Part shown: in pieces, positions 5,960 to 61,299 of the stretch
How positions within the stretch are numbered: the stretch's first letter is position 1
Layout: every line of letters starts with the position of its first letter
Assembly (NCBI GenBank): GCA_964447765.1
Contig: CAYUTO010000003.1
Coordinates: 72,919-136,918 of the forward strand
Direction: 5' to 3'
Length of the DNA: 64,000 nt
Source of the DNA: an uncultured Gammaproteobacteria bacterium
Lineage (GTDB): Bacteria; Patescibacteriota; Patescibacteriia; Magasanikbacterales; UBA922
Position numbers and translations under genes: made by a program
Notes under the pieces: generated by a model
Told to the model about the DNA's origin: nothing
The model's database searches: none
What the model saw: only the letters and a program-made list of their open reading frames with translations

Positions 5960-6603
5960 TTGCTATTATCCCTTCGATTCTAGTCAAAACCAAGAATGAA
6001 TTTTTGTCTCAAATTTCTCTACTAGAGCATTCGGTCACTCATCTCCAGCTTGATATTGCTGATGGAAATTTTGTTTCTAATACTACGTGGAGTGAGCCAG
6101 AGATTATCCGCCACAGTGAAGGATACACATTTGAACTTCACCTTATGGTCGAGCATCCGCTCGAAGTTATTGCTGAATGGAGTACTGTAGCAAATGTCAC
6201 CAAATATATCGTCCATTTTGAATCTGAGGACAACATTGAAGAAGTCATATCTCATATACAAGCATCTAATGGACTGAAACGCGAAGTCTTCATTGCACTC
6301 AATCCTGAGACACAGCTAAGTGCACTCGAAAGAATTGCCGATCGGATTGATGGAGTTCTCTTTATGGGTGTCACCCCTGGGTTTCAAGGGCAAAAATTAA
6401 TTCCTGCAGTTCTTGAAAAAATCACTCAGTGCAGAAACAGATATCCTCATTTGTACACTGAACTAGATGGTGGTGTCCATGAAGATACGCTCGAAGCGAT
6501 CGTCAAAAGCGGTGTTCATGCGATTTGTCCGGGAAGTTTGGTGTTCAAACGAGAACAGAAACCGAGTGAACAAATTATATTTATCAAAAACCAATTAGCG
6601 TAA
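5956..6603 (+). CDS. rpe: Ribulose-phosphate 3-epimerase
   Basis: IIPSIL N-terminus, HLMVEHP and a LDGGV C-terminal motif. Start overlaps the rpiB stop by 4 nt. Confidence 0.8.
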   Translation: MIAIIPSILVKTKNEFLSQISLLEHSVTHLQLDIADGNFVSNTTWSEPEIIRHSEGYTFELHLMVEHPLEVIAEWSTVANVTKYIVHFESEDNIEEVISHIQASNGLKREVFIALNPETQLSALERIADRIDGVLFMGVTPGFQGQKLIPAVLEKITQCRNRYPHLYTELDGGVHEDTLEAIVKSGVHAICPGSLVFKREQKPSEQIIFIKNQLA

Positions 6604-6613
6604 ACAAATATAT

Positions 6614-7579
6614 ATGTCTCAAAAAAATGACCTCCTCGACCTCGTGATTATCGGAGCTGCTGCTGCAGGGTGTGCTGCTGCCGTATACGCCGCACGAAGA
6701 AATTTGAAGTTCGCTGTGGTTACCAAAGATATTGGTGGAGAAGTTGCTCTTTCAGGAGAAGTAGAAAACTGGCCAGGTATCATACACACCACTGGTTTTG
6801 AATTGGCACAACAGTTCTACAAACATATGGAATCATATGGTATCAAAGCAGATGTAGGCTATTCGGTAACTTCGATTGAAAAGGAAGGAAAATATTTCAT
6901 TGTAAAAACTGAAGATTACTCAAAAAAAGAAAAGCTCTTCTATACAAAAACCGTAATTATCGGAAGTGGTATCCACCCTCGAGAGCTTGGGATTCCAGGA
7001 GAAAAAGAGTTGCGCGGCAAGGGAGTCACCTACTGTACCGTATGTGACGGACCGCTTTATCGCAATAAAATAACCACCACAATCGGAGCCGGAAATGCAG
7101 CACTCGAGTCGGCTCTCATGATGGCTGAGCTTGCAACCAAAGTGTATTGCATTACCAAATTCCCTAATACCAAAGAAACCAATGGTGGATTTCCCAAAGG
7201 TGAAAATATTTTGATTGATAAATTAAAAAAAGCTCCTAATGTGGAGATTATCTACGGCGCTATCACTACTGAAATACTGGGCACCGAAAATGTAACCGGC
7301 GTTTCTTATACCGACAACACCGGATCAAAACAAACTATCGAAACGAACGGTGTCATGGTACATATTGGAAATATTCCTAATTCCACTTTTGCGCCAATTG
7401 TCGACCGAACCCCCTTGGGCGAAATTATCGTGGATCTTACTTGCGCCACCTCAATCCCGGGAATTTTCGCAGCAGGAGATGTAACCACGGTTCCCTACAA
7501 ACAAATTGTCATTGCCGCAGGCCAGGGAGTCACAGCAGCACTCTCTGCTATCGCATATATCAATAAATGGGAAGAGTAA
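6614..7579 (+). CDS. trxB: Thioredoxin reductase (FAD/NAD(P)-binding, CxxC)
   Basis: DLVIIGAAAAGCAAAVYAAR FAD site, redox-active CTVCDG, second Rossmann motif TTIGAGNAALE, and FAAGDV. Confidence 0.85.
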   Translation: MSQKNDLLDLVIIGAAAAGCAAAVYAARRNLKFAVVTKDIGGEVALSGEVENWPGIIHTTGFELAQQFYKHMESYGIKADVGYSVTSIEKEGKYFIVKTEDYSKKEKLFYTKTVIIGSGIHPRELGIPGEKELRGKGVTYCTVCDGPLYRNKITTTIGAGNAALESALMMAELATKVYCITKFPNTKETNGGFPKGENILIDKLKKAPNVEIIYGAITTEILGTENVTGVSYTDNTGSKQTIETNGVMVHIGNIPNSTFAPIVDRTPLGEIIVDLTCATSIPGIFAAGDVTTVPYKQIVIAAGQGVTAALSAIAYINKWEE

Positions 7580-17796: not shown

Positions 17797-18918
17797 ATGA
17801 TCCACACACATAAAAAAATACTTATTGTTTCCCTTTCGGCAGGGTCAGGTCATATCCAGACTGCTAAAGCGCTTGAAAAAGCTGCTAAACTTGATTTTCC
17901 CGAACTTGAGTGTAGGCACATCGACATTGCTGACTATATTACCCCCTTGCTCAAAAAAACTACGGTTGAAGGATATGATTTTCTCGTATCCCATCTTCCC
18001 AAAGTCTGGTCTGGATTATTCCGAATCTCTGATAATAAGGTATTTATAAAAACATATCATGCTCTTACTGATTACCTAAAAATGCTTAGTTCATTTGAAT
18101 TTCTTCAGGAAGTCGAAAATTTTGCACCCGACCACATTATCACCACTCATTTTTTACCTTCGGAAATTTTGGCACACGCCATGAAAAAACGCAGCAAAGC
18201 TGTTCCTATTACTCAAATAGTTACCGACTACGGTCTACACCCTATGATCGTGATTAATGGAGTAACAAATTATGTAGTGAGCACACCCGAGATGAAAGAG
18301 GAATTAATTCACACGCACAAAATCCCCTCTACCCGTATTCATGAATTTGGTATTCCGATTGACCCTGCTTTTTATCACACACCATCACTCGAAGAAGCAC
18401 GAGTGAAACTGAAACTACCCGAAGACAAACCTTTGGTTTTATTACTTTCTGGTGGAAGTGGAATGATTGAACTTGCCGATACTATCGAAGAATTATTTGC
18501 ACACTTACAGCTACCTACCGCTATAGTTGCAGTAACGGGGAAAAATAAAAAAATGCTTACTCGTATTTCGAAGCTCAGTCCACCAGCACACATTACCTAC
18601 ATCCCACTCGGCTGGACTGATGATATTTCTTCGCTTATGAAATTAGCTTCAGTTGTCGTAAGCAAACCAGGAGGACTCACGACTACCGAATGCACTGTGT
18701 CTCAGGTTCCTCTTATTGCCATTCATCCGATTCCTGGTCAGGAAGAATTTAATGTAGAATATTTGAAAAAAAATCATCTCGGTGACCACGCTCCAACTAC
18801 CAGAGACGTATTACCGCTTGTAACCCACTACCTCTCACAAAAGACTACAAAAAAAGACTACACACGGGTGCAGTCTGGTACACAATTACTAGAATTTATT
18901 TCACAATTGAAAACTTAG
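17797..18918 (+). CDS. GT28-family glycosyltransferase (MGDG synthase/MurG-like)
   Basis: N-terminal KILIVSLSAGSGHIQTAKAL (MGDG synthase/UgtP-like G-loop). C-terminal PGGLTTTE ... glycosyltransferase family 28 C-terminal pattern. Confidence 0.7.
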   Translation: MIHTHKKILIVSLSAGSGHIQTAKALEKAAKLDFPELECRHIDIADYITPLLKKTTVEGYDFLVSHLPKVWSGLFRISDNKVFIKTYHALTDYLKMLSSFEFLQEVENFAPDHIITTHFLPSEILAHAMKKRSKAVPITQIVTDYGLHPMIVINGVTNYVVSTPEMKEELIHTHKIPSTRIHEFGIPIDPAFYHTPSLEEARVKLKLPEDKPLVLLLSGGSGMIELADTIEELFAHLQLPTAIVAVTGKNKKMLTRISKLSPPAHITYIPLGWTDDISSLMKLASVVVSKPGGLTTTECTVSQVPLIAIHPIPGQEEFNVEYLKKNHLGDHAPTTRDVLPLVTHYLSQKTTKKDYTRVQSGTQLLEFISQLKT

Positions 18919-19388
18919 AATTCATCAGGATATGAATCATTATATCCAGGTGTTATCGGATTATTGATACTCCCATACAAACCCATATATATAAAGTAGG
19001 TGATACTATAAGCACCCAGTATTACCGCGGTTCCTGTTACACAATACATTAAAATTTTCTTTCCCGTCTCGATTTTTTCTTCATTACCACTGGAGGTCAT
19101 GATGACAAATCCTGCATACAAGGCCAAAGCAACAGCAATGATGCCCATTACACCCAAAAATGTTTTGATCAGTTTTGCCACGATTATTCGAGGGTCACTG
19201 TGTGTTAATTTGGCCCCCTTATCACCACCAAATGCATTGAGTTGTGCTTCCATTTCTGAACCTTGAAATTGCCCTGGTGTTTGAGTTGATGGGCTCGTAG
19301 CAAACACTATACTAGGCATACTTGAAAAAAGTATTCCGAGTAAGAATGTAGCACCTACGATCAATTTTTTTATTTTTTTCATATTCAA
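18915..19388 (-). CDS. T4SS-pilin-like (VirB2/TrbC-type) small secreted membrane protein, paralog 1 of 11
   Basis: Signal peptide, then two hydrophobic helices around a polar turn: IIAVALALYAGFVIMTSSGNEEKIETGKKILMYCVTGTAVILGAYSIT. Confidence 0.7.
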   Translation of the reverse strand: MNMKKIKKLIVGATFLLGILFSSMPSIVFATSPSTQTPGQFQGSEMEAQLNAFGGDKGAKLTHSDPRIIVAKLIKTFLGVMGIIAVALALYAGFVIMTSSGNEEKIETGKKILMYCVTGTAVILGAYSITYFIYMGLYGSINNPITPGYNDSYPDEF

Positions 19389-19397
19389 GCTTCAAAT

Positions 19398-19811
19398 TTA
19401 TTGTTGACCTATCGTTTCTGCAAGAATTCGGCTTGTTACAAAACTGGTGATGCTATATGCAGATAAAATAATAATAAGCCCAACAACTGCATAACCGATG
19501 ATTTTTTTTGCTTTTGATAGATTTTCTTCGTTACCCGCAGCTGTAAAAATCAGAAAGCCGGCATAGACCACCAACACCACAAACATAATTCCTAACAAGG
19601 ACAATACCAACTGGATTCCTTTGGCAACGGTAATACGAATATCTTGCGCTTCGGTACCATATCCTGCAGCTTGAGATCCAGCATTGAGCTGCCCCATGAT
19701 GTCTGGACCAGTAGTTGTTGCTAGAGCTCCTGCTGGCGAAAAAACAAATACTCCAAACATTAGGAATGAAGTAAAAAGTACACGCACAGCTAGTGCTTTC
19801 ATTTTTTGCAT
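19398..19811 (-). CDS. T4SS-pilin-like protein, paralog 2
   Basis: LSLLGIMFVVLVVYAGFLIFTAAGNEENLSKAKKIIGYAVVGLIIILSAYSIT; same architecture. Confidence 0.7.
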   Translation of the reverse strand: MQKMKALAVRVLFTSFLMFGVFVFSPAGALATTTGPDIMGQLNAGSQAAGYGTEAQDIRITVAKGIQLVLSLLGIMFVVLVVYAGFLIFTAAGNEENLSKAKKIIGYAVVGLIIILSAYSITSFVTSRILAETIGQQ

Positions 19812-19815
19812 ATTT

Positions 19816-20238
19816 TTATGGTGTGGCGGCAGGAGTCGGAGTAGTTGGAGTACTTACTGATCCTTCCAATACTCGTGGAACTACAAATCTGGTAATACTA
19901 TAAGCTGCCATGAGAATGATGAGTCCTATTACTGCTCGACCTATAATATTTTTCGCCTTAGTAACTTGCTCGTCTTCTCCTAGTGCCATCATCCAAAGGT
20001 AGCCAGCGTATACGATGAGTACGGTGAATAGTACTCCTAATACTGAAAATAATACGGTGATCAGTCTTCCAATATTTTCTGCTAATGTTGTCTCTGTTGC
20101 TTTTACAAACCCTGCTTGCGTTCCTGCTTTATGCACATCATCAATACCTAGATTTTGAGTATAGACAGTAGTACTTAATAGACCAGAAAATAGAAACGCG
20201 GCTAACAAAAAAATTTTAACAGTTTGTAGTTTTTTCAT
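19816..20238 (-). CDS. T4SS-pilin-like protein, paralog 3 (C-terminal T/P-rich tail)
   Basis: Start at MKKLQTVK. VLFTVLIVYAGYLWMMALGEDEQVTKAKNIIGRAVIGLIILMAAYSIT ... TPTTPTPAATP. Confidence 0.65.
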   Translation of the reverse strand: MKKLQTVKIFLLAAFLFSGLLSTTVYTQNLGIDDVHKAGTQAGFVKATETTLAENIGRLITVLFSVLGVLFTVLIVYAGYLWMMALGEDEQVTKAKNIIGRAVIGLIILMAAYSITRFVVPRVLEGSVSTPTTPTPAATP

Positions 20239-20239
20239 A

Positions 20240-20635
20240 TTATTGACCACTAAATCGTGACGTAATAAACACGGTGATTGCATATGATGATACCACAATA
20301 AACAGCCCCATGATTGATGATTTGATAATTTCTTTTGCTTTATTCACTTGCTCGTCCTCTCCTCCTGCAGTCATCCAGAGATACCCTGCGTAGACAGTAA
20401 GCACTAGGAATATAATACCTACCAGACTCAACACTGTTTTTATCACATTTCCTACCACGACAGTTAGGTCAGTAGGCACATTTCCCCCAATACCTTTTTG
20501 TAAATTCTTCAGATTATCGTCTGCATTGCCCAAATTTTGATTTGTGCCCATTACTCGACTTGGTAATGCCATAATACTGAGAGATATCAGAACTCCTCGT
20601 ATCCAGTATTTTTTTACGCTATTAATAATTTTCAT
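20240..20635 (-). CDS. T4SS-pilin-like protein, paralog 4
   Basis: LSLVGIIFLVLTVYAGYLWMTAGGEDEQVNKAKEIIKSSIMGLFIVVSSYAIT. Confidence 0.7.
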   Translation of the reverse strand: MKIINSVKKYWIRGVLISLSIMALPSRVMGTNQNLGNADDNLKNLQKGIGGNVPTDLTVVVGNVIKTVLSLVGIIFLVLTVYAGYLWMTAGGEDEQVNKAKEIIKSSIMGLFIVVSSYAITVFITSRFSGQ

Positions 20636-20650
20636 AACTAGTTCAAATTA

Positions 20651-21061
20651 CTATCCAAAATTGATTGCATTGGTTATAAATGCTGCAATAGCATATGCAC
20701 TCACCGTGATTATCAATCCAATGATTGCAGCAATTAATGTCTGGCGAGATTTGGCGATTTTTTCTTCTTCTCCTCGAGCGAGGAACCAGGTGATTCCCGC
20801 ATAGAGTGTGAGGACAAAGAATAAAAGACCTAATATTCCAAATAGCCACTGCGCGACTGATCCAATATATGTCGCTATTTCGTTTTTTGGTAACCCGGTA
20901 GGCCCTACCGCTGATTCCAGTGCTGCCCCCGCATCTTCGATGGTTTTTTTGGCGTGTACCTTATTAAAAAACAACAATGAAGCTGCCACAGCAAGAGGAA
21001 TACTCAGAAACAAGGTTTTAATTTTTGAATAGACCCACATGTTTAAATAATTTATTTTCAT
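20651..21061 (-). CDS. T4SS-pilin-like protein, paralog 5
   Basis: LFGILGLLFFVLTLYAGITWFLARGEEEKIAKSRQTLIAAIIGLIITVSAYAIA. Confidence 0.7.
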   Translation of the reverse strand: MKINYLNMWVYSKIKTLFLSIPLAVAASLLFFNKVHAKKTIEDAGAALESAVGPTGLPKNEIATYIGSVAQWLFGILGLLFFVLTLYAGITWFLARGEEEKIAKSRQTLIAAIIGLIITVSAYAIAAFITNAINFG

Positions 21062-21218
21062 TAGTTTATTCTTAATCCCCCTATAGAAGGACTAAACACT
21101 TAATTGACCTTATTTAATAACGTGGTTTTTTACATTAAACAGAGGTTACTACGTTACGCTCATCTTTTATTTTATTAACGTAAATAGCTTCTCCCATACT
21201 GCTCATCCGCGAGCTCGA

Positions 21219-21767
21219 TTACGTATCTACACACAAACTTGCTTCATTCGGATCACTACTGTCACACTCCCAACCTGACTCTACTGTACAAGTTGCACTA
21301 CACCCATCTCCTGGATTTGTATTTAAATCGTCACATTCTTCAGCACCTTCTCTTTTTCCGTTTCCACATACCGTTCCTGTAGGTGTTGTCTGAGTAGTAG
21401 TGCCTCCACTATTTGATCCAAGCTTAAACACAAAGTTAGTAAGGGCGTATGCTCCGATAACAATGATAATTCCGATTGTCGCAGCAATAATTGTATTTAG
21501 GGCTTTTTCTGTCGTCTCTGAACTACCTCTCGCCGTCATCCAGAGAATACCCCCGTATAGCACGAGCACAAAGAATAGAACCGAAATCATCGAAAGCAGC
21601 GTTCCAATGATATTACCCGCAATAGTTGGAACACTATCTCCGTAGGTATCAAGCTTTGCTGCACTTGCTGTATCTTTCAGCCCAAAATCATTAGCAAGAA
21701 CGGTAGTGCCGAAAGCGAAAATTGAGAATGCTGCGATAAGACCGATAAGTAAATACACTTTTTTCAT
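21219..21767 (-). CDS. T4SS-pilin-like protein, paralog 6, with C-terminal Myxococcus-type cysteine-rich repeat
   Basis: Start at MKKVYLL. Pilin core LLSMISVLFFVLVLYGGILWMTARGSSETTEKALNTIIAATIGIIIVIGAYAL. Tail CGNGKREGAEECDDLNTNPGDGCSATCTVESGWEC matches the CxxGxxExxEECDDGNxxxGDGCSxxC repeat pattern. Confidence 0.65.
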   Translation of the reverse strand: MKKVYLLIGLIAAFSIFAFGTTVLANDFGLKDTASAAKLDTYGDSVPTIAGNIIGTLLSMISVLFFVLVLYGGILWMTARGSSETTEKALNTIIAATIGIIIVIGAYALTNFVFKLGSNSGGTTTQTTPTGTVCGNGKREGAEECDDLNTNPGDGCSATCTVESGWECDSSDPNEASLCVDT

Positions 21768-21786
21768 AAGAAAAAATTGATTAATT

Positions 21787-22242
21787 TCATGGAGAGTAGC
21801 CCGATGTTCCTGATGAGTATTGATTTCCACATGACGTGCCAATAGTCTCACAAAGAGAACGCAATACAAAACTCATAATAGAGTACGATGCCATAATAAT
21901 CACAAGTCCCATGACCGCAGCGCTTAGTATTTTTTTTGCACTGCCCACCTTCTCATCATTACCTCCTGCGGTCATCCAGGTGAACCCAGCGTAGAGAACA
22001 ATAATCACGGCAATGATCCCTAATAGACTCAAGGCAAAATTGATAATACGCACCGTAATAATACGAGGATCTTCCGCACTCAACCCTGAGTACTGTGTCC
22101 CTGCACAATCAAGCCCTAGAATGTCACCTGCACCTGTCTGTCCATCACAACCTTGCGCCAAGGATTTCACTGGAAAAAAGGCTATAATTAGAGCAAAACA
22201 AATAACTGAGAAAAGAGTTGCGAGAACTAATTTTTTATTCAT
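21787..22242 (-). CDS. T4SS-pilin-like protein, paralog 7
   Basis: Start at MNKKLV; the longer ORF extension upstream is rejected. ALSLLGIIAVIIVLYAGFTWMTAGGNDEKVGSAKKILSAAVMGLVIIMASYSIM; Cys pairs lie N- and C-terminal of the core. Confidence 0.65.
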   Translation of the reverse strand: MNKKLVLATLFSVICFALIIAFFPVKSLAQGCDGQTGAGDILGLDCAGTQYSGLSAEDPRIITVRIINFALSLLGIIAVIIVLYAGFTWMTAGGNDEKVGSAKKILSAAVMGLVIIMASYSIMSFVLRSLCETIGTSCGNQYSSGTSGYSP

Positions 22243-22343
22243 ACAGAATAGGTGAGAGTCAAAGCTTTCCTGGCCAGTAACGTGCCTATGACCAGTGAAA
22301 GCTCTGACACCCGTATGGGTGCCTGAGTCTGACAACTGTATTT

Positions 22344-22760
22344 TTACGCTTCTTCGACAGCTGTCTGAATAGAATTGATAAAGAAATTTGCAATTGCGTA
22401 TGCAGATAGAATGATCGCGAGACCAATCACTGCAGCAATGATAATTTTCTTTGCAGCTTCTACACTTTCGTCGTTTCCGCCGGCGGTCATCCACTTGAAA
22501 CCACCCCAGAGGATCAATATAACTGCGATTAAACCTAGGAACGTCAATGCGAGGTTGATAATATTTACTACTACCGCGCGCGCATCAGTTTCTTCAGTAC
22601 TGATGTTTAAACCAGTCGTTGGCTCAATTCCAAATGGATCATCAGAACCATTTCCTGTTGCCAAACTTACCTTTGGTGACAACGTAAACACCGTTACCAA
22701 AGCTACAATACCAAGCATGATATTTCTATGCTTTAGTAATTTTGCTTGTATGTTTTTCAT
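22344..22760 (-). CDS. T4SS-pilin-like protein, paralog 8
   Basis: ALTFLGLIAVILILWGGFKWMTAGGNDESVEAAKKIIIAAVIGLAIILSAYAIA. Confidence 0.7.
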   Translation of the reverse strand: MKNIQAKLLKHRNIMLGIVALVTVFTLSPKVSLATGNGSDDPFGIEPTTGLNISTEETDARAVVVNIINLALTFLGLIAVILILWGGFKWMTAGGNDESVEAAKKIIIAAVIGLAIILSAYAIANFFINSIQTAVEEA

Positions 22761-22837
22761 ACTCCCTCACCCCCCTTCAATTTTTTACATGTTTTATGCA
22801 TAATATTCACTAGTGTGATATGTATATACGTAGATTA

Positions 22838-23245
22838 TTAGTTTGGACTAGCTTGTAGAGTATTCAAAATCAACGTAATTATAGCATAGCTACTGAAAAT
22901 CACAATAATTCCAATCCCAGCCCAGAGCATAGCTTGTAAACCCTTCTGAATCCTTTCAGAATTCCCTGCTGAAGTGAGCCAAAGCACACCTCCATATACG
23001 AATACTACGAAGGTGATTGAACCGATGATTCCCATGATAGCCCCAATGCTATTCCCAATAATCGTTTTAATATCTGTTGTTGCAAGTGGATTGGTAAGTG
23101 AGACACAATCTTGTCCTTCACGACAACCGATCGTTGGAGTACTCGAGGCCAAGGCTAATTGAAAATTACTAACACTCACCAGAGTGCTTAGTATAATTAC
23201 CATAATTCCGACTAACTTTGTCCTATTTTTTTTCATATCAACCAT
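22838..23245 (-). CDS. T4SS-pilin-like protein, paralog 9
   Basis: IMGIIGSITFVVFVYGGVLWLTSAGNSERIQKGLQAMLWAGIGIIVIFSSYAII. Confidence 0.7.
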   Translation of the reverse strand: MVDMKKNRTKLVGIMVIILSTLVSVSNFQLALASSTPTIGCREGQDCVSLTNPLATTDIKTIIGNSIGAIMGIIGSITFVVFVYGGVLWLTSAGNSERIQKGLQAMLWAGIGIIVIFSSYAIITLILNTLQASPN

Positions 23246-23257
23246 ACTGGTGCCAAA

Positions 23258-24349
23258 TTAGGAAGTAATCCCGATAGCTTTTACAATAAAACTTACTAAT
23301 ACATACGCTGAAAACGCGATAATCATACCTACCGTTGCTGCGACCAATATTTGTTTTCCTTGTCCTACTTTTTCTGAATTTCCAAATGATAGAACCATAG
23401 TGAGTCCACCATAGACAAAGAACGCAAATCCAAGACCAGCTATAATACCAAATAACCAAGTTGCTACGTTTACACCCAATTGCACCAAATCTTCTACGTT
23501 GCGACATGACCCAGTAAATGCGCAGGAAGGAAGTGGACCTTGATAACCATCTGGTGCCTTATATCGTTCAGCAATATACTGGTCAATTGCTTTTGACACC
23601 TCCACTTCAGTCGTTTTCTTTACACATGTATTATTTTCTCCTGTCGTACAATGTCGTGCAGCCGAACAAACGTCTGAGGGTAATTGAGTACAATCGATAC
23701 TTGAGTCATCTTTTGCAAGACATTTAGCCCCAGCTACTTGCCAAAAACATTGAGAGTTCGCTTCACACGTTGACTTGTCTTTCCCATTATTTTGAGCACA
23801 TATTCCAACTGGATTTTCTAGCTGCTGCTCGAGAGAAGCCGTTGCTACATAATACACCTGAAAATCCATATTTAACCCCGCATCTTCTCCTTCAAAATAG
23901 TAACGAGTAAACACACCTGAAGAAGGTACGTATGGTGTAGCATGATAGGTTATACTTGCCGGCTGATTGTCGTCTTGGGTGGTATTCCAACTCAAAGTCG
24001 AATTTCCATTATCAGATTTTTCTTCCCTTACATATTCTCCTCGTTGCAATTTATCTGCATTCTGTTTGATAAAACGACTGCTGTCACGGAGATTTACCCA
24101 CTCCACAACTGAAGTATTATTTGCCACCTCGACACAAAAAATTTCAAATGCAGTCCCTGGGACATTGGGGTCTGCCAACACACTGTCATTATTCCCAATA
24201 GAAAAAATAAGTAATTTATGATTTTCTCGTGCAAATGATTGACACTTTCCCCCTGTAAATTCTGACGCACTTACTTGTTGCGCGCTAAAAAGACACACTA
24301 CGCTCAACAAAGTTAACCAGAATATTTTGTGAATTTTTTCTAAGCGCAT
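23258..24349 (-). CDS. Large Cys-rich secreted protein with C-terminal T4SS-pilin-like domain, paralog 10
   Basis: Signal peptide, ~280 aa ectodomain with more than 14 Cys, then LFGIIAGLGFAFFVYGGLTMVLSFGNSEKVGQGKQILVAATVGMIIAFSAYVLV. Confidence 0.65.
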   Translation of the reverse strand: MRLEKIHKIFWLTLLSVVCLFSAQQVSASEFTGGKCQSFARENHKLLIFSIGNNDSVLADPNVPGTAFEIFCVEVANNTSVVEWVNLRDSSRFIKQNADKLQRGEYVREEKSDNGNSTLSWNTTQDDNQPASITYHATPYVPSSGVFTRYYFEGEDAGLNMDFQVYYVATASLEQQLENPVGICAQNNGKDKSTCEANSQCFWQVAGAKCLAKDDSSIDCTQLPSDVCSAARHCTTGENNTCVKKTTEVEVSKAIDQYIAERYKAPDGYQGPLPSCAFTGSCRNVEDLVQLGVNVATWLFGIIAGLGFAFFVYGGLTMVLSFGNSEKVGQGKQILVAATVGMIIAFSAYVLVSFIVKAIGITS

Positions 24350-24351
24350 AC

Positions 24352-25737
24352 TTAATACGTTTGTTGAATTTTTGCTGCACCATTGAGAATCACCGTCTTA
24401 TCTTTCTTGAGTGTCTCCTGTTCAGTATTTCCTGGTCTCAAAAATTCGGTAATTAAATCTTTCATAGTTGAAACTGCAATATCACTTTCCCGGCCCCGAT
24501 ACCAATTATCAGCGAATAGCGCTTGTGTTGCAAAAGGTTCCATTGTTTCATCTGTTTGCTGCTCTGCAATCTGTTCTCGGTACGGACTTGGTCTAAAGGT
24601 TGCAGTGGTATACGTTTTTACTTTTTCTTTTGAAGTGATAAATCTCACAAAATCCCAGGCCTCATTCTGGTATTTTGATTTCTTTACTACTGATTCGAGC
24701 CAATAGTTTGCAACATTGGAAGGGGAACTTGGATTCAGCTGTGGCACAGTTGTAATCTGGATATCCAGTTGCGGTGCTCGTTCTTTTATCCGAGGATAAT
24801 CATAGGCAAATCCAAGAAAAAACGCGCTTTTCCCTCGTACAAATTCATCAAATGCATTTTGTTGTTTTTCATTCCAGCTATATCGATCAGCGGTAGCGCG
24901 CGCAAATCCCGTATAGAAATCTAGTGCACGAAGCATCGGATGCGATCGATCTTGTGCACGATCAACACCCGCAGCAAAAGTAACCGACTGCTGACTTACT
25001 GGAATAACACCACTCTGCATCATAAAGAGAGACACAATATCAAAAAAATTATCAATATTATTTGAGGTACCAAGTGCTACTCCTGACTGAGTAATATCAA
25101 GAGTTGAATTGAATTTGGTAGTTTTTTGTATTGCCTCCACAAATTCTTCCCAAGTAGCAGGAGCTTCAGCAATTCCTGCTCGATCAAGGAGTGTTTGATT
25201 GTAAAATAATGCAAGAGAGTCAAACGCAATCGGGAGCCCATAAATTTGTCCATCGATTACCACGTCCTTGTGAACCGACTGTACGTACTCATTTCGAATA
25301 TCCCGTTCACGAGGCAATGGCACGGTATCGATTACCACAGCCATTTCTTTGGTATATTTATTTTTCTCTACCAAACGAGGTACTTGCACACTCGCAGGTG
25401 CTGCAGATAGCCTATTCTGATTTTTACGTAGCCAGCGAACGTGCATTGAAACAATGTCAGGTCCCACATCATCTGCAAGTGCATTGGTGAACAATGTATC
25501 AAATTCTTCGTAACGAACCTGACGAATGTTGATCGTTACTTGAGGTCGCATCGCTTTGTATTCTGCGGCATATTTCTTCAGCTCATCCACATCATTAAAT
25601 ACAGTCCAATAGTTCAAAGTAACACCTCTCACCGATGTTTGTTCTTCGGCAGTCAAACCTTTGCAACCAAAACCAGAAAAAAGCAACATGGTGCTGAGCA
25701 AAGAAAGAGATAGTATGGATTTTGTGATTTTTCTCAT
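24352..25737 (-). CDS. Extracellular solute-binding protein (ABC-type, family 1 sugar-binding-like), probable lipoprotein
   Basis: Lipobox-like LLFSGFGC after a signal sequence. Overall periplasmic-binding-protein pattern. No permease or ATPase genes adjacent. Confidence 0.65.
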   Translation of the reverse strand: MRKITKSILSLSLLSTMLLFSGFGCKGLTAEEQTSVRGVTLNYWTVFNDVDELKKYAAEYKAMRPQVTINIRQVRYEEFDTLFTNALADDVGPDIVSMHVRWLRKNQNRLSAAPASVQVPRLVEKNKYTKEMAVVIDTVPLPRERDIRNEYVQSVHKDVVIDGQIYGLPIAFDSLALFYNQTLLDRAGIAEAPATWEEFVEAIQKTTKFNSTLDITQSGVALGTSNNIDNFFDIVSLFMMQSGVIPVSQQSVTFAAGVDRAQDRSHPMLRALDFYTGFARATADRYSWNEKQQNAFDEFVRGKSAFFLGFAYDYPRIKERAPQLDIQITTVPQLNPSSPSNVANYWLESVVKKSKYQNEAWDFVRFITSKEKVKTYTTATFRPSPYREQIAEQQTDETMEPFATQALFADNWYRGRESDIAVSTMKDLITEFLRPGNTEQETLKKDKTVILNGAAKIQQTY

Positions 25738-25752
25738 AAAATTTAGAGGAGA

Positions 25753-25822
25753 AATTAAAGATTAAAGATTGAATAAACGGAATATTAGTCTTTAATCTTT
25801 AATTTTTAATTTTTATTCTTTA
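25753..25822. repeat. Intergenic palindromic repeat, family R2 (aagattaaagatt/aatctttaatctt words)
   Basis: aaattaaagattaaagattg ... agtctttaatctttaatttttaatttttattcttt. Confidence 0.65.
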
Positions 25823-25823
25823 A

Positions 25824-26519
25824 CTACCTAAATATCTCAAACACGAAATCCACTAGTGCGTAGCTTGCAAAAATTAACACAACTCCTAGACCTGCCCATA
25901 ATATTGTCTCACGAGCTTTCTGTGTGCGTTCTGAATTTCCTCGTGCGGTCATCCAAGTAATTCCTCCATACAACATCATTACTAATGCAACAGTTCCAAT
26001 TACTCCCATAACTCCTCGAATGATAATTCCAATCAGATCCTCCACATTATCGACTTTGAGTTTATTGAGTTCGTCTGCATATTGCGTAAATGATGCAGAT
26101 GGAGATGTTTCACGAGCCACATCTTCAAGACATTTTTCAATACTAGGTTTTTCCGTACACGGCGCACAATTCCCTGGTGTCACAATACTTCCCCCTGCTG
26201 CGCTGTCTCCATACTTGATGCATTGGCTCCCGCACTGACAGGCCCCACTCGGATAGGTAATACCACCTGCTTGGCAGGCTGCTTTTGTTTCAAAAACTCG
26301 GTCTATTTGAGGATTGCAAAAAGTTTCCAACCACTCAGTAGTAATTGTTCCTACTCCTTGTATTCCATTTAAAGTAGGAACAGCATCTCCTACTCCATAA
26401 CATACCCCACTTATTTTACAGACCTGAACTAACGCTAATGCTTTATCTGAAAAAAATAACGTACTCATCAATATTACCAGCACCACAATCATTTTTGAAC
26501 TCCTTTGAAATAAACGCAT
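25824..26519 (-). CDS. Cys-rich secreted protein with C-terminal T4SS-pilin-like domain, paralog 11
   Basis: Signal peptide, ~130 aa Cys-rich region (CKISGVCYG ... CQCGSQC ... CAPCTEKPSIEKC), then IGTVALVMMLYGGITWMTARGNSERTQKARETILWAGLGVVLIFASYALV. Confidence 0.65.
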   Translation of the reverse strand: MRLFQRSSKMIVVLVILMSTLFFSDKALALVQVCKISGVCYGVGDAVPTLNGIQGVGTITTEWLETFCNPQIDRVFETKAACQAGGITYPSGACQCGSQCIKYGDSAAGGSIVTPGNCAPCTEKPSIEKCLEDVARETSPSASFTQYADELNKLKVDNVEDLIGIIIRGVMGVIGTVALVMMLYGGITWMTARGNSERTQKARETILWAGLGVVLIFASYALVDFVFEIFR

Positions 26520-26537
26520 ACTTTTTTTAATTCCTGA

Positions 26538-27374
26538 CTATAGTAAACCCTCTTTCTTGGCAAAATGTATTGCAGTTTTCAGTAATGCTATTTTATTTCC
26601 AGTATCAAAATATTCTCCCTCATATTCATACGCAAAAAATTTCTTTTTCTTTGCCAGAGTATTTGCTGCGTCAGAAAGCCAAATTTCTCCATCTTTTCCT
26701 TCTACTTGAGAATCAAGAATTGCCCAAATATCATTGGTAAAAATATAACGCATTCCCCCAACGATCAAACCTAATGGAGAAACTGCTTCAGGCGTAGGTT
26801 TTTCACGAAATTCATTTACCCGGTAAACACCCTTTCCTAATGGTTTTCCATATACATTACCGTACTTTCTCATCTCTTCAGTATTATCCATTTTTTGAAC
26901 ACCAATTACTGAAGCTTTCTTTTTATAAAAAATATCTAGCAGTTGCTGTATGACAGGAGTTTTAGCATCAATAATACTATCACCATCTGAGAAGGCGAAT
27001 GGTTCATCTCCTACAAACTCTTTTGCACACAATAATGCATGCCCATTCCCTCGCGGCTCAGCTTGTCTGGTATAAAAAAATCGTACTTTTTCACTTAAAT
27101 CTATGAGAGATTGTATGCGATCGAGCTTTCCCTGACTTTCCAAATATGCCTCAAAATCACGATCACGATCAAAATGATCTTCTATCGCACGCTTTTGAGA
27201 GCTCGTAACAAAAATGATTTCAGTAATTCCACTTGCTACCATTTCTTCTACAATATATTGAAGTACTGGTTTATCAAGTACTGGTAACATTTCTTTTGGC
27301 ATGGCTTTGGTAGCTGGAAGAAACCGCGTACCCAAACCTGCGACAGTGATTACACCTTTACGAACTTTTTTCAT
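26538..27374 (-). CDS. galU: UTP-glucose-1-phosphate uridylyltransferase
   Basis: KGVITVAGLGTRFLPATKAMPKEMLPVLDKPVLQYIVEE N-terminus; diagnostic for GalU. Confidence 0.85.
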   Translation of the reverse strand: MKKVRKGVITVAGLGTRFLPATKAMPKEMLPVLDKPVLQYIVEEMVASGITEIIFVTSSQKRAIEDHFDRDRDFEAYLESQGKLDRIQSLIDLSEKVRFFYTRQAEPRGNGHALLCAKEFVGDEPFAFSDGDSIIDAKTPVIQQLLDIFYKKKASVIGVQKMDNTEEMRKYGNVYGKPLGKGVYRVNEFREKPTPEAVSPLGLIVGGMRYIFTNDIWAILDSQVEGKDGEIWLSDAANTLAKKKKFFAYEYEGEYFDTGNKIALLKTAIHFAKKEGLL

Positions 27375-27505
27375 ACTTTCTTTTTACAATAAGATGGTGA
27401 GTAGTATACCACAATATTCAAAATACATGGAACACGATACACGACGAATACAGATACAAGTGAATTTGAATTTATTTGGTATAGTGTTCCATGTATTTTG
27501 TATTT

Positions 27506-29019: not shown

Positions 29020-29643
29020 TTAATTCGTTTTCAAATTTCTGATATGAGTAAGTGATTCGACCCTCAAGGGCACTGGACTTTTAGTCACATCCTTTTCGAT
29101 TTCAATAATAATTTTTATCATTCGGATATTGGTAAGAGTAATCGGGAGAGTCATCGCAGCTTGTGACCCCGTATATGATTCTGTAAAATACTGAAATGTT
29201 GGTGTGCCTCTACTTGCGTTTTGCACATAACTTGCAATAGTAGTGATTTGCTCCTGACCTGTATAACTCAGGGGATTTCCACTTGGTTTCAATATTCCTC
29301 TCCTCAAATCAGTACCTGAAAGCCAATAACGCACCCGCTCACGTAAACTATCTCCATCAATATTTGCATACACCGTGAGAGATGAAGTGGTAGCCTGTGC
29401 AACTGGATACGAACCAATACTCGATTGTTCGGCAGTTCTAATCGTATTGACGATTTCAGAAATTACACGACGAGCGTCTTTTTGACCAAATAATTGATCA
29501 TTGAGTATGCGCTGATTGCGAAAACTCAATATGATAAATGATGTAGCTCCCAACATTACAATCATAGTGATTCCTAATACCACTGATACTTCAATCAAGC
29601 TCATGCCCCGAGTATACTCACTTTTTTTTGTAAAAACTTTCAT
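29020..29643 (-). CDS. Prepilin-type N-terminal cleavage/methylation domain protein (pseudopilin/minor pilin)
   Basis: Class III signal RG|MSLIEVSVVLGI at the N-terminus. Confidence 0.7.
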   Translation of the reverse strand: MKVFTKKSEYTRGMSLIEVSVVLGITMIVMLGATSFIILSFRNQRILNDQLFGQKDARRVISEIVNTIRTAEQSSIGSYPVAQATTSSLTVYANIDGDSLRERVRYWLSGTDLRRGILKPSGNPLSYTGQEQITTIASYVQNASRGTPTFQYFTESYTGSQAAMTLPITLTNIRMIKIIIEIEKDVTKSPVPLRVESLTHIRNLKTN

Positions 29644-31442
29644 AGTGAAGTTAACTCTGTAATAATAAAATGATCAGTCGTGACTTGAAAAATATCTTCA
29701 TGATCTTGATATCCAACAGCCTCAACACGGATCGTATATTCTCCTGCGGCCAGATTTCCTACATACACCTGCCCAGGAGGAGTGCAGGCGTTGGTGTACA
29801 CAAAAGTAAGATCGGACAATAACGGCGAAACAGCAGAATCGATCGTATCAAAATATACTCGATACCTCATGTATCGCTCACCATCATGAGTATCAGAAAT
29901 ATTTACACTACTTTGTGTAAAATACGTACCACCTGTTCCGTCAGGCCCTACAAATACCCAATTTTGTCCCGTACTTGAAGGACTTGTTGCCATTTGAAAA
30001 CGAACCGTGGTTGAAGGTGACTGAGCCATTGGGTTCCATGACCAGATGATATAGCGGGCATTTTCTCCGGTATCAATTGTTGATGATTCGAGATATCCGT
30101 TTGAAACATATACGCTACCATTTCGTGAAAGCGTTAGATTCCCTGGACTAGTAAGCGCATCAATACCACTTCCTGAACTATACCCTAATCCTGTACCAAA
30201 GCTTTCATTATTAGAGCCTCCCGACCAATCAGTCTGTGAAATACTTCCAACTCCAGTATTTTTTACTACTGAAAATCCGTTTGGTCCGGTAATTGTTACC
30301 GTAGCATTTGCAATAGGCGCTGACTGGTGTTCAGCTAGTATGATTAGCGATCTATTTGTATTTGGTCCCACAATCAATGTTCCCACCTCTGCTGCACCAG
30401 GTAATACAGTCATAGGCACATCGGGAATAGTCCCTAGAAGATCATATCCTGTTACTGATAAGCCATAGCTATCCCATGGTACATTCAAGTTCGATTTCAC
30501 TCCATTCCCATCAGTAGTATAGCTTTGATTTATCAGATATACACTCGGATTTGCTCCAATCATACGACTTCCCTTTATCTGAAAAGGAACATTTGGTACG
30601 ACATTACACTGAGCATTTTTCGTTTCTACACTTACACTGGATAATTCATCAATTGTAAGTGTTAGATTACTCACTGCTTGCTTAAGAATCGTCACATTCG
30701 GACTTGTAGGATTTGGGTTGGTTGAACTTGGTGCGTAGGTTTTATCCGTTGTGTAACCTGTCTTTGTAGCTTGTATAAAATATTTTGCAGTACCGGTGAC
30801 TAAATCATAAATACGCAAAAATCCATTATTATCAGTAGTATCAACAAAGTTGTAAGAAGGATTAGTGCTTGTTGCAATTACGGTCACCGATGCACCAGTA
30901 ACCGGATTTCCATAAGCGTCTATTACTTGAACAAACAATGCACCGTGATTGAGATTACCTTCAAGATATTTAGGTGCAATATAGGTATACATTGAGAAAG
31001 GTTCAGCTTGATCGCATGAAATACATCGTGCCTCAATCTGAACAAATTTATAATCATTTGGTGCAGTATCAGTAGGAGTTCCCCCGATCAAACCATCAAA
31101 CGGATCATCAATATTTCGGATGGTTCGAATGATTTCAAAACGCATCCCATTTCGGATAGTAGTGGTAGTATACTCAAACACGCCCGAAGGACTCCCATTG
31201 ATAATTCCCACGCTCTCAAATGGCGCATTATGCATAATTTCCATCTGCTCATTGAGGACTGCCGTTGCAAGAATACGAACGCGAGAATGATACACCAATG
31301 AAAAACTCAATTGGATACTCCCAAAAATTCCTACGATAAATAGACCAAAAATACCGAGTGCTACTACCGCCTCAATCAATGTAAATCCTCTCGATATAGA
31401 TGTTGATTTCATCAAAAAACGATTATAGGACACTTGACTCAC
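29640..31442 (-). CDS. Large prepilin-like protein (type IV pilin N-terminus, ~600 aa)
   Basis: SRG|FTLIEAVVALGIFGLFIVG N-terminal motif, then a long T/S/N/G-rich beta-type domain. Confidence 0.7.
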   Translation of the reverse strand: MSQVSYNRFLMKSTSISRGFTLIEAVVALGIFGLFIVGIFGSIQLSFSLVYHSRVRILATAVLNEQMEIMHNAPFESVGIINGSPSGVFEYTTTTIRNGMRFEIIRTIRNIDDPFDGLIGGTPTDTAPNDYKFVQIEARCISCDQAEPFSMYTYIAPKYLEGNLNHGALFVQVIDAYGNPVTGASVTVIATSTNPSYNFVDTTDNNGFLRIYDLVTGTAKYFIQATKTGYTTDKTYAPSSTNPNPTSPNVTILKQAVSNLTLTIDELSSVSVETKNAQCNVVPNVPFQIKGSRMIGANPSVYLINQSYTTDGNGVKSNLNVPWDSYGLSVTGYDLLGTIPDVPMTVLPGAAEVGTLIVGPNTNRSLIILAEHQSAPIANATVTITGPNGFSVVKNTGVGSISQTDWSGGSNNESFGTGLGYSSGSGIDALTSPGNLTLSRNGSVYVSNGYLESSTIDTGENARYIIWSWNPMAQSPSTTVRFQMATSPSSTGQNWVFVGPDGTGGTYFTQSSVNISDTHDGERYMRYRVYFDTIDSAVSPLLSDLTFVYTNACTPPGQVYVGNLAAGEYTIRVEAVGYQDHEDIFQVTTDHFIITELTSL

Positions 31443-33558: not shown

Positions 33559-35319
33559 GTGCTATACTATGCACTGATTAGTCGAGCATCAACTCACTTT
33601 CTTATGTTACCTTTGGAAGAGTTCAAAAAACTTCTTGCTAAAAAATTTAAATTAACCGCGGCACAAATTGCTACCCATCTTGAAGATGCACAAAACCGAG
33701 GTCGCGATTTGGAAACGTACCTGATTGAAAAGAACGTGGTAAAAGAAGATGCTTTGTACGAAGCGGTCGCAGAAGAATATGGATTGTCTCGAGTTTCCTT
33801 AAAAGGACGCGATATTCCTTCTGAAACATTACATGAATTACCTGAAGCTTTTGCTGAAGCGCACCGTATTGTAGCATTTGAAAGTACACCAACGTCCCTC
33901 AAAATTGCCCTTACTGATCCGACCGATGTACAAACTATCGAATTTATACGCAGAAAAAGTAGAAAAGACCTTGAAGTCTTTATTACCACTCCTCGCGAAA
34001 CCAAAGAAGCTTTGCGTAGGTACCGCTCAAACCTCAAACAAGAACTGAGCCAACCGCTTGCACACTCAGATCCTACAGACCTCAAAAAAGCTGCTGAGGA
34101 ACTTCCGATTATTAATATTGTTAATTCGATTCTCGAACATTCGGTATTCGAGAACTCTAGTGATATTCATATCGAACCGACTGAACTCGATGTGGTTGTT
34201 CGATTTCGTATTGATGGAATCCTACGCGAAATGATGCACTTACCGAAAGCGGTGCAGAGCGGTATTGTTGCCCGAATTAAAATTCTTTCAAACTTAAAAA
34301 TTGATGAACACATGATTCCGCAGGATGGACGATTTAAAATCTCTGTTCAAGGAGAAACATTATCGTTTCGTGTCTCAATCATTCCAGTGTATGACGGAGA
34401 AAAGATTGTCATGCGTCTTCTCCATGAAGGACAAAAACCGTTAACACTCGATGAACTTGGATTTTTACCTGGAATCAAAGAGCTTGTTGATGAGGCGATT
34501 GAAAAACCGCACGGCATGGTATTAGTTACAGGTCCTACCGGATCAGGAAAAACGACGACGCTTTATTCCATATTGGGAATGCTCAATCAGCCCGATGTAA
34601 ATATCTGCACGATTGAAGATCCGATCGAATACCACGTAACGGGTATTAATCAAAGTCAGATTAATCCTAAAGCTGGATTTACCTTTGCATCAGGACTTCG
34701 TTCGTTCCTTCGTCAAGATCCTGACATTATCATGGTGGGAGAAATTCGTGACAAGGAAACTGCGGAAATCGCCATTCATGCTGCGATGACCGGACACTTA
34801 GTATTATCAACCCTACACACCAATGATGCGCCTACTACCATCCCCCGTTTACTCGACATGGATATTCCGCCATTCTTGGTTGCATTCACTGCAAATATCA
34901 TTATTGCACAACGATTGGTTAGAAAAATCTGCCCCAATTGCAAAGAGTCGTTTAAACTAACCGCGAAAGAATTAAAACAACTACACTCTCTCATTGATAA
35001 ATCAAAAATGACTACTCTTTTCAAAGAACATGGAGTAACACTCACTGCAAAAGAAAAAAATCTCGAATCACTCACCTTTTATCGTGGTAAAGGATGTAAA
35101 AAATGCGAAGGCTCTGGATACAAAGGTCGTATCGGAATTTATGAAGTAATGGTAATTGACGAAGAACTTCAAAAAATTATCAATACCAAAGCTAATGCAA
35201 ATGATATTAAAGCGCACGCTATAAAAAATGGCATGCTTACTCTATTTCAAGATGGACTCATAAAGTCAAAACAAGGTATGACGACTATCGAAGAAGTACT
35301 CCGCGCAAGCAAAGACTAA
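33559..35319 (+). CDS. pilB: Type IV pilus assembly ATPase PilB (GspE family)
   Basis: Walker A VTGPTGSGKTTT, Asp box, Walker B and His box, plus a C-terminal Cys tetrad (CPNC...CKKCEGSG). N-terminal GSPII_E_N-like domain. Confidence 0.9.
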   Translation: MLYYALISRASTHFLMLPLEEFKKLLAKKFKLTAAQIATHLEDAQNRGRDLETYLIEKNVVKEDALYEAVAEEYGLSRVSLKGRDIPSETLHELPEAFAEAHRIVAFESTPTSLKIALTDPTDVQTIEFIRRKSRKDLEVFITTPRETKEALRRYRSNLKQELSQPLAHSDPTDLKKAAEELPIINIVNSILEHSVFENSSDIHIEPTELDVVVRFRIDGILREMMHLPKAVQSGIVARIKILSNLKIDEHMIPQDGRFKISVQGETLSFRVSIIPVYDGEKIVMRLLHEGQKPLTLDELGFLPGIKELVDEAIEKPHGMVLVTGPTGSGKTTTLYSILGMLNQPDVNICTIEDPIEYHVTGINQSQINPKAGFTFASGLRSFLRQDPDIIMVGEIRDKETAEIAIHAAMTGHLVLSTLHTNDAPTTIPRLLDMDIPPFLVAFTANIIIAQRLVRKICPNCKESFKLTAKELKQLHSLIDKSKMTTLFKEHGVTLTAKEKNLESLTFYRGKGCKKCEGSGYKGRIGIYEVMVIDEELQKIINTKANANDIKAHAIKNGMLTLFQDGLIKSKQGMTTIEEVLRASKD

Positions 35320-35323
35320 TTAT

Positions 35324-36448
35324 ATGACAAGTTCTGCACTACGAAATGCATCACAATTAAAGGAAGCGCGTCCATCACGCCAATTTTTTAGTTCTCGACA
35401 TGTGAAAATTCCCATGGTTGATCGTATTTTTTTTCTCGATCATTTAAAAACCATGATTCATGCAGGACTCTCACTCATCGAAGCATTGCATGTGCTCGCA
35501 AAAGAAGCGCAGAATAAAAAATTTGCTCGTATTGTAAAGGAAATTACCGATCATGTAGAAAAAGGAAACCAACTAAGTGATAGTCTCATGCTCTATCCAA
35601 AAATTTTTCCTGATTTGCAAACAAAAATGATTGCGTCTGGTGAAATTGCAGGAAAACTTGAAGATGCACTCGATCAAGTGGTTGTGCAAATGAAAAAAAA
35701 TCATGCACTTGTTGCGAGTGTTAAAGGAGCGCTCATTTATCCTTCCGTAATTGTAGGTGCGATTCTCATTATTGGGATCCTCATGGTCACTATGGTCCTC
35801 CCTAAGCTTACCGCCATGTTTGATGAATTCGAGGCTGAACTCCCACTCTCAACCAAAGTGTTGATTGGTATTACAGACTTTTTGTCACAGCCACTCAATT
35901 TGATACTTGTCCTTGGTGTTACAGCTCTCTTTGTTACCCTCTTTATTGTCATGATAAAAAAGAATGTAGCCTTTAGGTATTTTATGCACGGGGTTATCCT
36001 CCACTTACCTATTTTTGGAGCGATTGTAAAAAAAGTTAATCTCGCACGATTTTCTATAACCTTATCATCCCTTCTCAAAAGTACTATTCCGATTGTCGAC
36101 GCCGTACGTATTGCTGGAGAAACATGCAAAAATGTCCGATACCGAGGAGCACTTCTCAATGCCACTGAAAACCTTTCCAAAGGTGAACAATTATCAGATA
36201 CTCTTGCTACCAGTCCAAAACTGTTTCCACCTATGGTAACTGAAATGGTGATGGTAGGAGAAAAAACGGGTGAAATAGATCATTTACTGCAAGAACTTGC
36301 ATCATTCTATTCAGACGAAGTTGATAAAACCATGAAAAATTTTTCAACCATTATTGAACCGGTGATTATTATTTTACTCGGCGTAGGTGTTGCAGGTATC
36401 GCTGTTTCCATCATCATGCCGATGTATTCACTCACCCAAGCTTTCTAA
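35324..36448 (+). CDS. pilC: Type IV pilus inner-membrane platform protein PilC (GspF family)
   Basis: Two GspF repeats, each with TM helices. Characteristic DALDQVV and PLLNATENLSKGEQLSD regions. Confidence 0.85.
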   Translation: MTSSALRNASQLKEARPSRQFFSSRHVKIPMVDRIFFLDHLKTMIHAGLSLIEALHVLAKEAQNKKFARIVKEITDHVEKGNQLSDSLMLYPKIFPDLQTKMIASGEIAGKLEDALDQVVVQMKKNHALVASVKGALIYPSVIVGAILIIGILMVTMVLPKLTAMFDEFEAELPLSTKVLIGITDFLSQPLNLILVLGVTALFVTLFIVMIKKNVAFRYFMHGVILHLPIFGAIVKKVNLARFSITLSSLLKSTIPIVDAVRIAGETCKNVRYRGALLNATENLSKGEQLSDTLATSPKLFPPMVTEMVMVGEKTGEIDHLLQELASFYSDEVDKTMKNFSTIIEPVIIILLGVGVAGIAVSIIMPMYSLTQAF

Positions 36449-36457
36449 ACTATTCAC

Positions 36458-50885: not shown

Positions 50886-51080
50886 TTTTGACTCACCATT
50901 CATACACATACACGATATATTAAAAATAAGTGTAAACACGAGATTAGTGTACACTACTTTTACCTCTTATTCAAGAGATTGAGTAATGCTACAAAACCAG
51001 GTACAATGATTCACGTAACACATACTATAGCAGCGAAGACACAACACACACAACATACCCCTTATTTCCACTCAACCTCT

Positions 51081-61261: not shown

Positions 61262-61299
61262 AGCTAAATTGTGTACGCCTTCATAAAGATACAAATTTT

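Follow-up and report, generated by a model that had tools for sequence, protein, structure and literature searches.

The gene at positions 21219–21767 of the reverse strand probably encodes (we put the probability at about 0.6) a VirB2-like pilin of modular build, whose exchangeable, disulfide-bonded module would be on display, likely for recognition of a host or a surface; display, polymerization, and function are inferred. Because both halves of the protein pass the thresholds of the corresponding HMMs and the repeat is predicted to lie outside the membrane, a disulfide-stabilized knob on a pilin-like scaffold, as proposed in the original prediction, is the most economical reading. Beyond that prediction, the analysis showed that the protein is encoded by gene 7 of a conserved array of 11 paralogues in CPR bacteria, and that the repeat is a rare, exchangeable occupant of its C-terminus. 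Below, the window is the whole 64-kb stretch of DNA that was analyzed, and the target is this gene or its product.

Gene and protein architecture

The target is an intact ORF of 182 codons followed by a stop codon, with an unbroken reading frame and a complete repeat unit. Alternative starts give a TTG-initiated protein of 216 aa and the 203-aa version present in databases, both of which run into the upstream gene. The start was set at 21767 because the orthologues share the methionine of the MKKVY motif. The protein has three hydrophobic segments, and all six cysteines are located C-terminally to the second transmembrane helix (TM2). The following features were recognized:

21219..21767, (-) strand: whole gene, array position 7, from the ORF list and its translation; stop codon at 21219–21221
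21693..21767, (-) strand: signal peptide, residues 1–25, MKKVYLLIGLIAAFSIFAFGTTVLA; N-terminal KK and the first hydrophobic segment, AF2 helix at residues 2–20
21624..21692, (-) strand: mature N-terminal exposed segment, residues 26–48; near-invariant FGL/YGL motif, short AF2 helix at residues 30–36
21540..21623, (-) strand: transmembrane helix 1, residues 49–76; Kyte-Doolittle peak and hhalign match to VirB2
21495..21539, (-) strand: loop between the helices, residues 77–91 (15 residues), MTARGSSETTEKALN; contains R80 and K88
21426..21494, (-) strand: transmembrane helix 2, residues 92–114; hydropathy and AF2 helix
21369..21425, (-) strand: Gly/Ser/Thr-rich linker, residues 115–133; composition, pLDDT of ~50
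21231..21368, (-) strand: acidic 6-Cys repeat of the TIGR02232/DUF4215 type, residues 134–179 (46 residues); net charge of -9

The AF2 model, based on an alignment of 62 sequences, contains helices at residues 46–78 and 83–120 with pLDDT of ~90, and the linker and tail have values of ~50. Residues G29 and L30 of the exposed N-terminal segment are kept in at least 90% of the 62 aligned sequences. The signal peptide is expected to be cleaved after VLA. Both mature termini are predicted to be located outside the cytoplasmic membrane, with the C-terminal repeat being extracellular, so the tail would reside in an oxidizing compartment. In the membrane form of the protein, the loop would be cytoplasmic, and in a pilus, should one be formed, it would be oriented toward the lumen.

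Pilin-like core

Residues 44–113 matched the T4SS_pilin family (PF18895) with 29.2 bits at a cutoff of 26.6, in agreement with the predicted pilin-like membrane hairpin. Alignment of the family profile with VirB2 of Agrobacterium C58 using hhalign (E 3.5e-5, but a probability of only 72%) covered 56 columns and spanned both helices and the G-x-x-W-M-x-x-R loop, in which the nearly invariant W-M-T-A-R-G motif of the family pairs with GISWMFGRA of VirB2. The position 1 paralogue also passed the TrbC/VirB2 model PF04956 (30.4 bits at a cutoff of 27.9). No relationship to the F-pilin TraA was found by hhalign. The profile search of PDB with the family alignment produced only a chance match (E 2.5), and a Foldseek search of PDB with the AF2 model gave 0 matches at E≤1e-3, retrieving merely generic helical hairpins. 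Searches of 72,556 plasmids by tblastn with the target and the position 1 paralogue returned nothing meaningful.

Like VirB2 of the Agrobacterium T-pilus and TrbC of RP4, the target has a signal peptide, a two-helix hairpin, and a short basic loop. However, these canonical pilins are ~70 aa long in the mature form, contain no extra domain, and in some cases are C-terminally trimmed and cyclized, whereas the target carries a 68-aa C-terminal extension consisting of the linker and the domain. In the F-pilus, the termini of the subunits lie at the outer surface, so a C-terminal appendage on a flexible linker would project outward if the protein is polymerized. The helix-loop-helix of the subunits points toward the lumen in conjugative pili of solved structure, and the P- and H-type pilins are processed at the C-terminus, with TrbC losing 27 residues and TrhA losing 5 (PMC12037004).

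Cysteine-rich repeat on the tail

The original prediction assigned the C-terminus to the Myxococcus-type cysteine-rich repeats, and both the profile score and the spacing of cysteines confirmed this. The NCBIfam model TIGR02232 (myxo_disulf_rpt, "cysteine-rich acidic repeat") was matched with 55.7 bits at a cutoff of 20.8 (E 3e-15) over residues 133–168, corresponding to positions 3–38 of the 38-position profile; the peptide quoted in that prediction, CGNGKREGAEECDDLNTNPGDGCSATCTVESGWEC, comprises residues 134–168. The score for the Pfam family DUF4215 (PF13948), 25.4 bits, was slightly under the cutoff of 27 bits. The cysteines of the tail are arranged as C-x10-C-x10-C-x3-C-x7-C-x10-C, which is the spacing of the commonest 45–48-aa, 6-Cys unit of large multi-repeat proteins, and the tail contains exactly one such unit.

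When the 52-residue tail was compared by phmmer with 1.84 billion representative proteins, 13,531 of them were matched at E≤1e-3, the best ones being 600–4,300 aa long with 7–47 matched stretches each, 50–58% identical to the tail. A word-indexed homologue search with the tail only gave no candidates. The target resembles the TIGR02232/DUF4215 proteins in the full-length match to the model and the identical 6-Cys spacing, but differs from them in overall design: they are large and contain many units, whereas here one unit is appended to a membrane hairpin. No further repeat copies or possible donor copies were found in six-frame translations of the 64-kb window; the repeat occurs here as a single unit and not as a tandem array.

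Among solved structures, the motif was detected only in human pappalysin-1 and -2, in a single copy and with a weak match (E 0.005–0.014). The matching regions are residues 865–904 of PAPP-A and 880–919 of PAPP-A2, and the shared pattern is CG[DN]G..EECDD.N..GDGCS..C..E.G[FW].C. Binding of Ca2+ by the DD.N...GDG segment may be considered as speculation.

Pilin array and genomic surroundings

The target is the seventh of twelve co-oriented genes forming the following block:

18915..26519, (-) strand: pilin array of 11 PF18895 paralogues and one solute-binding-protein gene, identified with Pfam

All 11 pilins of the array passed the PF18895 threshold, and the paralogues share only 22–38% identity with the target. 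The order of the 12-gene block is conserved in four related genomes (loci L001–L004). In a scan of the array for promoters and terminators, the sites were no more frequent than in shuffled sequences; the sole plausible terminator follows the last pilin gene.

Homologues of the target and the 80 related loci belong almost exclusively to MAGs of Candidatus Magasanikbacteria and other CPR lineages, and the organism is an ultrasmall bacterium of the CPR/Patescibacteria, probably Candidatus Magasanikbacteria. Many array loci (L005, L007, L009, and others) are titled "uncultured Gammaproteobacteria bacterium," yet they are syntenic with the Magasanikbacteria loci. These titles of the relatives' MAG records look like generic or wrong labels.

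Since arrays of VirB2-like genes in Patescibacteria have been published, this type of locus is already known. Such arrays comprise 2–11 genes, in tandem or split by one non-pilin gene (Quinonero-Coronel et al. 2025, PMC12102498; also PMC12857230), and pilin genes are located near virB4 in 1,135 Patescibacteria assemblies (PMC12102498). In Southlakia epibionticum, a six-pilin array resides inside the T4SS cluster and is essential (Wang et al. 2023, PMC10633639). The array described here is similar to the published ones in the PF18895/PF04956 family, the tandem arrangement of 11 genes with one non-pilin gene, the low identity of the paralogues, and the chromosomal location. It differs in the lack of virB4 within 64 kb and in the presence of variable ectodomains at four to five positions; the published pilins are small and divergent, with no mention of grafted domains or cysteine-rich tails.

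The flanking regions are ordinary chromosomal DNA with genes for nucleotidyl transferase, MGDG-synthase-like glycosyltransferase, IleRS, SSB, ribosomal protein S6, PolA, and dnaA. Given the presence of dnaA (62255–63643, (+) strand, ~41 kb from the array) and the RNase P protein gene (60884–61294), the window is located near the replication origin. T4SS genes have been found near dnaA in some Patescibacteria (PMC12102498). In the 64-kb window, no VirB4, VirB6, or other T4SS component was detected among the scanned ORFs of at least 100 aa.

The non-pilin member of the block (24352–25737, (-) strand) encodes a lipoprotein-type solute-binding protein (SBP_bac_1/SBP_bac_8) and lies between the first and second pilin genes. 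It occupies the identical position in each of the four syntenic genomes, with ~81% identity, and has no ABC permease or ATPase gene beside it. A type IV pilus cluster is situated a few kilobases from the array (29020–31442 on the (-) strand and 33559–37564 on the (+) strand). The first part includes two pilins with N_methyl motifs, a 207-aa pilin and a 600-aa modular pilin with a CarboxypepD_reg/SpaA-like domain, and the second contains genes for PilB, PilC, and PilM.

Conserved carrier and replaced tail

Comparison of the window with loci L001–L004 revealed that the position 7 hairpin (72–74 residues) is the most conserved one in the array, with a mean identity of 94% and a minimum of 89%; for the hairpins of other array positions, the values are 72–88%. 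The tails at position 7 are just 14–41% identical. Related genomes retain the carrier at 92–100% identity, and their sequences beyond the linker are non-homologous, yet almost always cysteine-rich.

The borders of the replacement were located at the DNA level by blastn comparison of window positions 18000–27500 with L001–L004. Collinearity with L001 (89%) and with L003 (78%) stops in both cases at 21403, a breakpoint inside the linker, and resumes ~440 bp further on, at ~20958–20965, inside the next gene. The replaced segment is as follows:

20966..21402, (-) strand: tail, 157-bp spacer, and initial codons of the following pilin gene; DNA not similar to that of the syntenic genomes

The spacer (21062–21218) is 157 bp long and AT-rich (GC of ~0.28), and the corresponding spacer of L001 is only 19 bp. 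It contains no relics of an older tail, ORF remnant, or terminator-like site. No GC or skew anomaly that would mark a recent foreign origin was observed over the tail.

Conservation of the 6-Cys spacing among homologues, on which the original prediction was to be judged, was found only in a minority. TIGR02232 was matched by 4 of the 53 homologues, and the remaining ones carry different cysteine-rich tails; an example of an unrelated tail consists of WCLTAENTCVQGGGGPCSG..ACNAA repeats. Tails with the 6-Cys unit are rare also in the wider data set, being present in 4 distinct genes among 793 pilin ORFs, namely those of the window, L001 (the same as L005), L002, and L008. Their unit composition varies: the tail of L002 consists of a short 4-Cys unit and a long 6-Cys unit, that of L001 of two short units, each 89% identical at the DNA level to the short unit of L002, and that in the window of the long unit only.

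Variable ectodomains are present at four to five of the 11 array positions. DNA collinearity with the relatives is also broken over the N-terminal ectodomains at position 3 (~23723–24351) and position 1 (~26259–26541). These cysteine-rich variable ectodomains have a length of ~285 aa at position 3 (23258–24349, (-) strand) and ~156 aa at position 1 (25824–26519, (-) strand); the former shows a weak sub-threshold match to CfaA_B_C (counting-factor-associated protein). A Pfam scan of ten other pilins with ectodomains (eight C-terminal tails and two N-terminal extensions) revealed no family except for a weak match to SH3_3 in P0023.

An N-terminal ectodomain of ~230 aa with an AHSAGA motif was found in L002 at position 1 (2594–3760) and in L004 at position 4 (5744–6988). 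The motif resembles the nucleophile elbow of serine hydrolases, and the domain has no Pfam match. Since the same domain is carried by different paralogues, modules seem to move between array positions.

Cysteine parity in long tails

Separate HMMs were built for the hairpin and the 6-Cys unit and run on 85 loci. Of the 793 distinct pilin ORFs found there, 216 have a C-terminal tail longer than 40 aa, and at least one tailed pilin is present in 78 of the 85 loci. The number of cysteines is even and non-zero in 194 of these long tails and odd in only 2; 20 tails have none. Cysteine accounts for 8.4% of tail residues, and 744 of the 793 hairpins are cysteine-free. This near-perfect parity is an indirect argument that the tails are folded, disulfide-bonded domains under selection, and the long C-terminal tails of these pilins appear to be generally disulfide-rich.

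Proposed mechanism and alternative explanations

According to the proposed mechanism, the Sec signal peptide would be removed and the two hydrophobic helices would insert into the membrane as a hairpin, with both ends outside and the R/K loop inside. The flexible Gly/Thr linker of 18 residues would then hold the 46-residue, strongly acidic 6-Cys repeat in the oxidizing extracytoplasmic space, where three disulfides would stabilize it as a small knob. The hairpin would serve as the carrier, presumably making contacts with the T4SS for extraction from the membrane and/or polymerization. The knob would be an exchangeable payload, replaced between lineages when recombination occurs in the linker or when repeat units are gained or lost. 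On the surface or on a pilus, it likely functions in recognition of, or adhesion to, a host cell or substrate that differs by lineage.

Several points speak against this reading. An appendage of ~65 residues per subunit may be sterically hard to accommodate in a tightly packed pilus, the tail could be removed by C-terminal processing as in the P- and H-type pilins (PMC12037004), and no T4SS gene is present in the 64-kb window, where the neighbors are housekeeping and type IV pilus genes. The pLDDT of only ~50 for the tail, the negative comparisons with TraA and with PDB structures, and the lack of DsbA, MdbA, and VKOR genes in the window weigh in the same direction. The hairpin could instead be a mere two-helix membrane anchor, with the knob exposed on the cell surface through a flexible stalk and the paralogues being small surface proteins. 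The absence of T4SS ATPase and channel genes from the window would fit such an anchor, as would the finding of generic hairpins only in the Foldseek search and the bulky ectodomains of 150–370 aa in several paralogues, which are seemingly hard to pack in a filament. Reviews likewise mention only a "potential to elaborate conjugative pili," and according to them no filament of the PF18895 family has been seen in any CPR organism. Nevertheless, we consider the anchor unlikely, since the profile similarity to genuine VirB2 extends over both helices and the loop and the matches to PF18895 and PF04956 are above threshold. In addition, pilin genes of Patescibacteria occur near virB4 in the 1,135 assemblies mentioned above (PMC12102498) and are essential within the Southlakia T4SS cluster (PMC10633639), and the 94% identity of the position 7 hairpin exceeds the needs of a passive anchor.

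It is also conceivable, but rather improbable, that the tail is cleaved at maturation and either discarded as a pro-region or released as a small secreted disulfide-rich acidic peptide, with the hairpin acting as an export carrier. C-terminal processing is established for the P- and H-type pilins (PMC12037004), the flexible linker of conserved length after TM2 offers an accessible cleavage site, and the tails act as independent modules. However, no homologue of the TraF/TrhF-type signal peptidases was seen in the window, and the cysteine parity (194 even versus 2 odd) excludes a throw-away propeptide, although release and display are not separated by parity. Finally, the loss of DNA similarity to syntenic relatives past 21403 and the unusually long 157-bp spacer might indicate an artefact, in which a pilin gene was joined to an unrelated cysteine-rich fragment by mis-assembly, a frameshift, or read-through. 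The probability of this is negligible. An assembly error is ruled out by a separate Logan assembly, which shows 100% identity along a stretch of 2,612 bp that includes the junction; moreover, the protein is recorded on three contigs, orthologues elsewhere share the architecture with related repeat units, and the frame is continuous, with a complete unit and no GC anomaly.

Relation to modular type IV pilins

Pilins of this family, arrays of their genes, and the family of the repeat are already known separately. Our search of the literature on TIGR02232 and on cysteine-rich CPR pilins found no paper describing the fusion of a pilin with this repeat, the organization with a carrier and a swappable tail, or the prevalence of disulfide-rich tails as a rule. 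A broader proposal, which we put forward tentatively as a possibility, is that CPR bacteria use their VirB2-like pilins as a modular system for display, in which the ultra-conserved position 7 carrier bears rapidly exchanged disulfide-rich C-terminal cassettes and positions 1, 3, and 4 bear N-terminal modules, among them the ~230-aa domain found at different positions, together setting the host or surface specificity of the epibiont T4SS filament. If true, modular type IV pilins and antigenically variable surface proteins would have a counterpart of the conjugative type.

The "modular pilin" principle has been described for type IV pili, with PilB of S. sanguinis as an example (Raynaud et al. 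2021, PMC8179133). These pilins belong to a filament system unrelated to that of the target, carry a class III signal peptide, and have a single N-terminal helix in place of the two-helix hairpin. The N_methyl motif (IPR012902, PF07963) was not found in the target, and the nearby type IV pilins (29020–31442) do match it. Because the target lacks a class III signal peptide, the likeness is an analogy and not membership. With this finding, conjugative-type pilins, usually deemed minimal (~70 residues), would also fall under the "modular pilin" principle.

T4SS pilin arrays are essential in the sole genetically tractable Patescibacterium, and a swappable tail would provide an experimental handle on the function of the array. 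The tail could be used as an epitope or affinity tag to establish filament membership, and its type could be correlated with host range across metagenomes. The solved relative of the repeat in pappalysin could guide modeling.

Thiol-related genes and a second cysteine-containing pilin

An enrichment of CPR genomes in VKOR and in thiol-disulfide oxidoreductases of the MdbA-like type has been reported (bioRxiv 10.1101/335083). The 64-kb window contains no DsbA, MdbA, or VKOR gene. A gene for a DoxX/MauE-like membrane protein (50403–50954, (-) strand) adjoins a pyridine-nucleotide-disulfide oxidoreductase gene (49043–50278, (-) strand), and their products are a possible thiol or redox pair.

The pilin at array position 6 (21787–22200, (-) strand) contains two cysteines near the mature N-terminus (GCDGQ...LDCAG) and two near the C-terminus (LCETIGTSCG), all of which are conserved in the five genomes. 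One may speculate that their disulfides lock or bridge the exposed ends of the protein, as a non-peptide analogue of pilin cyclization.
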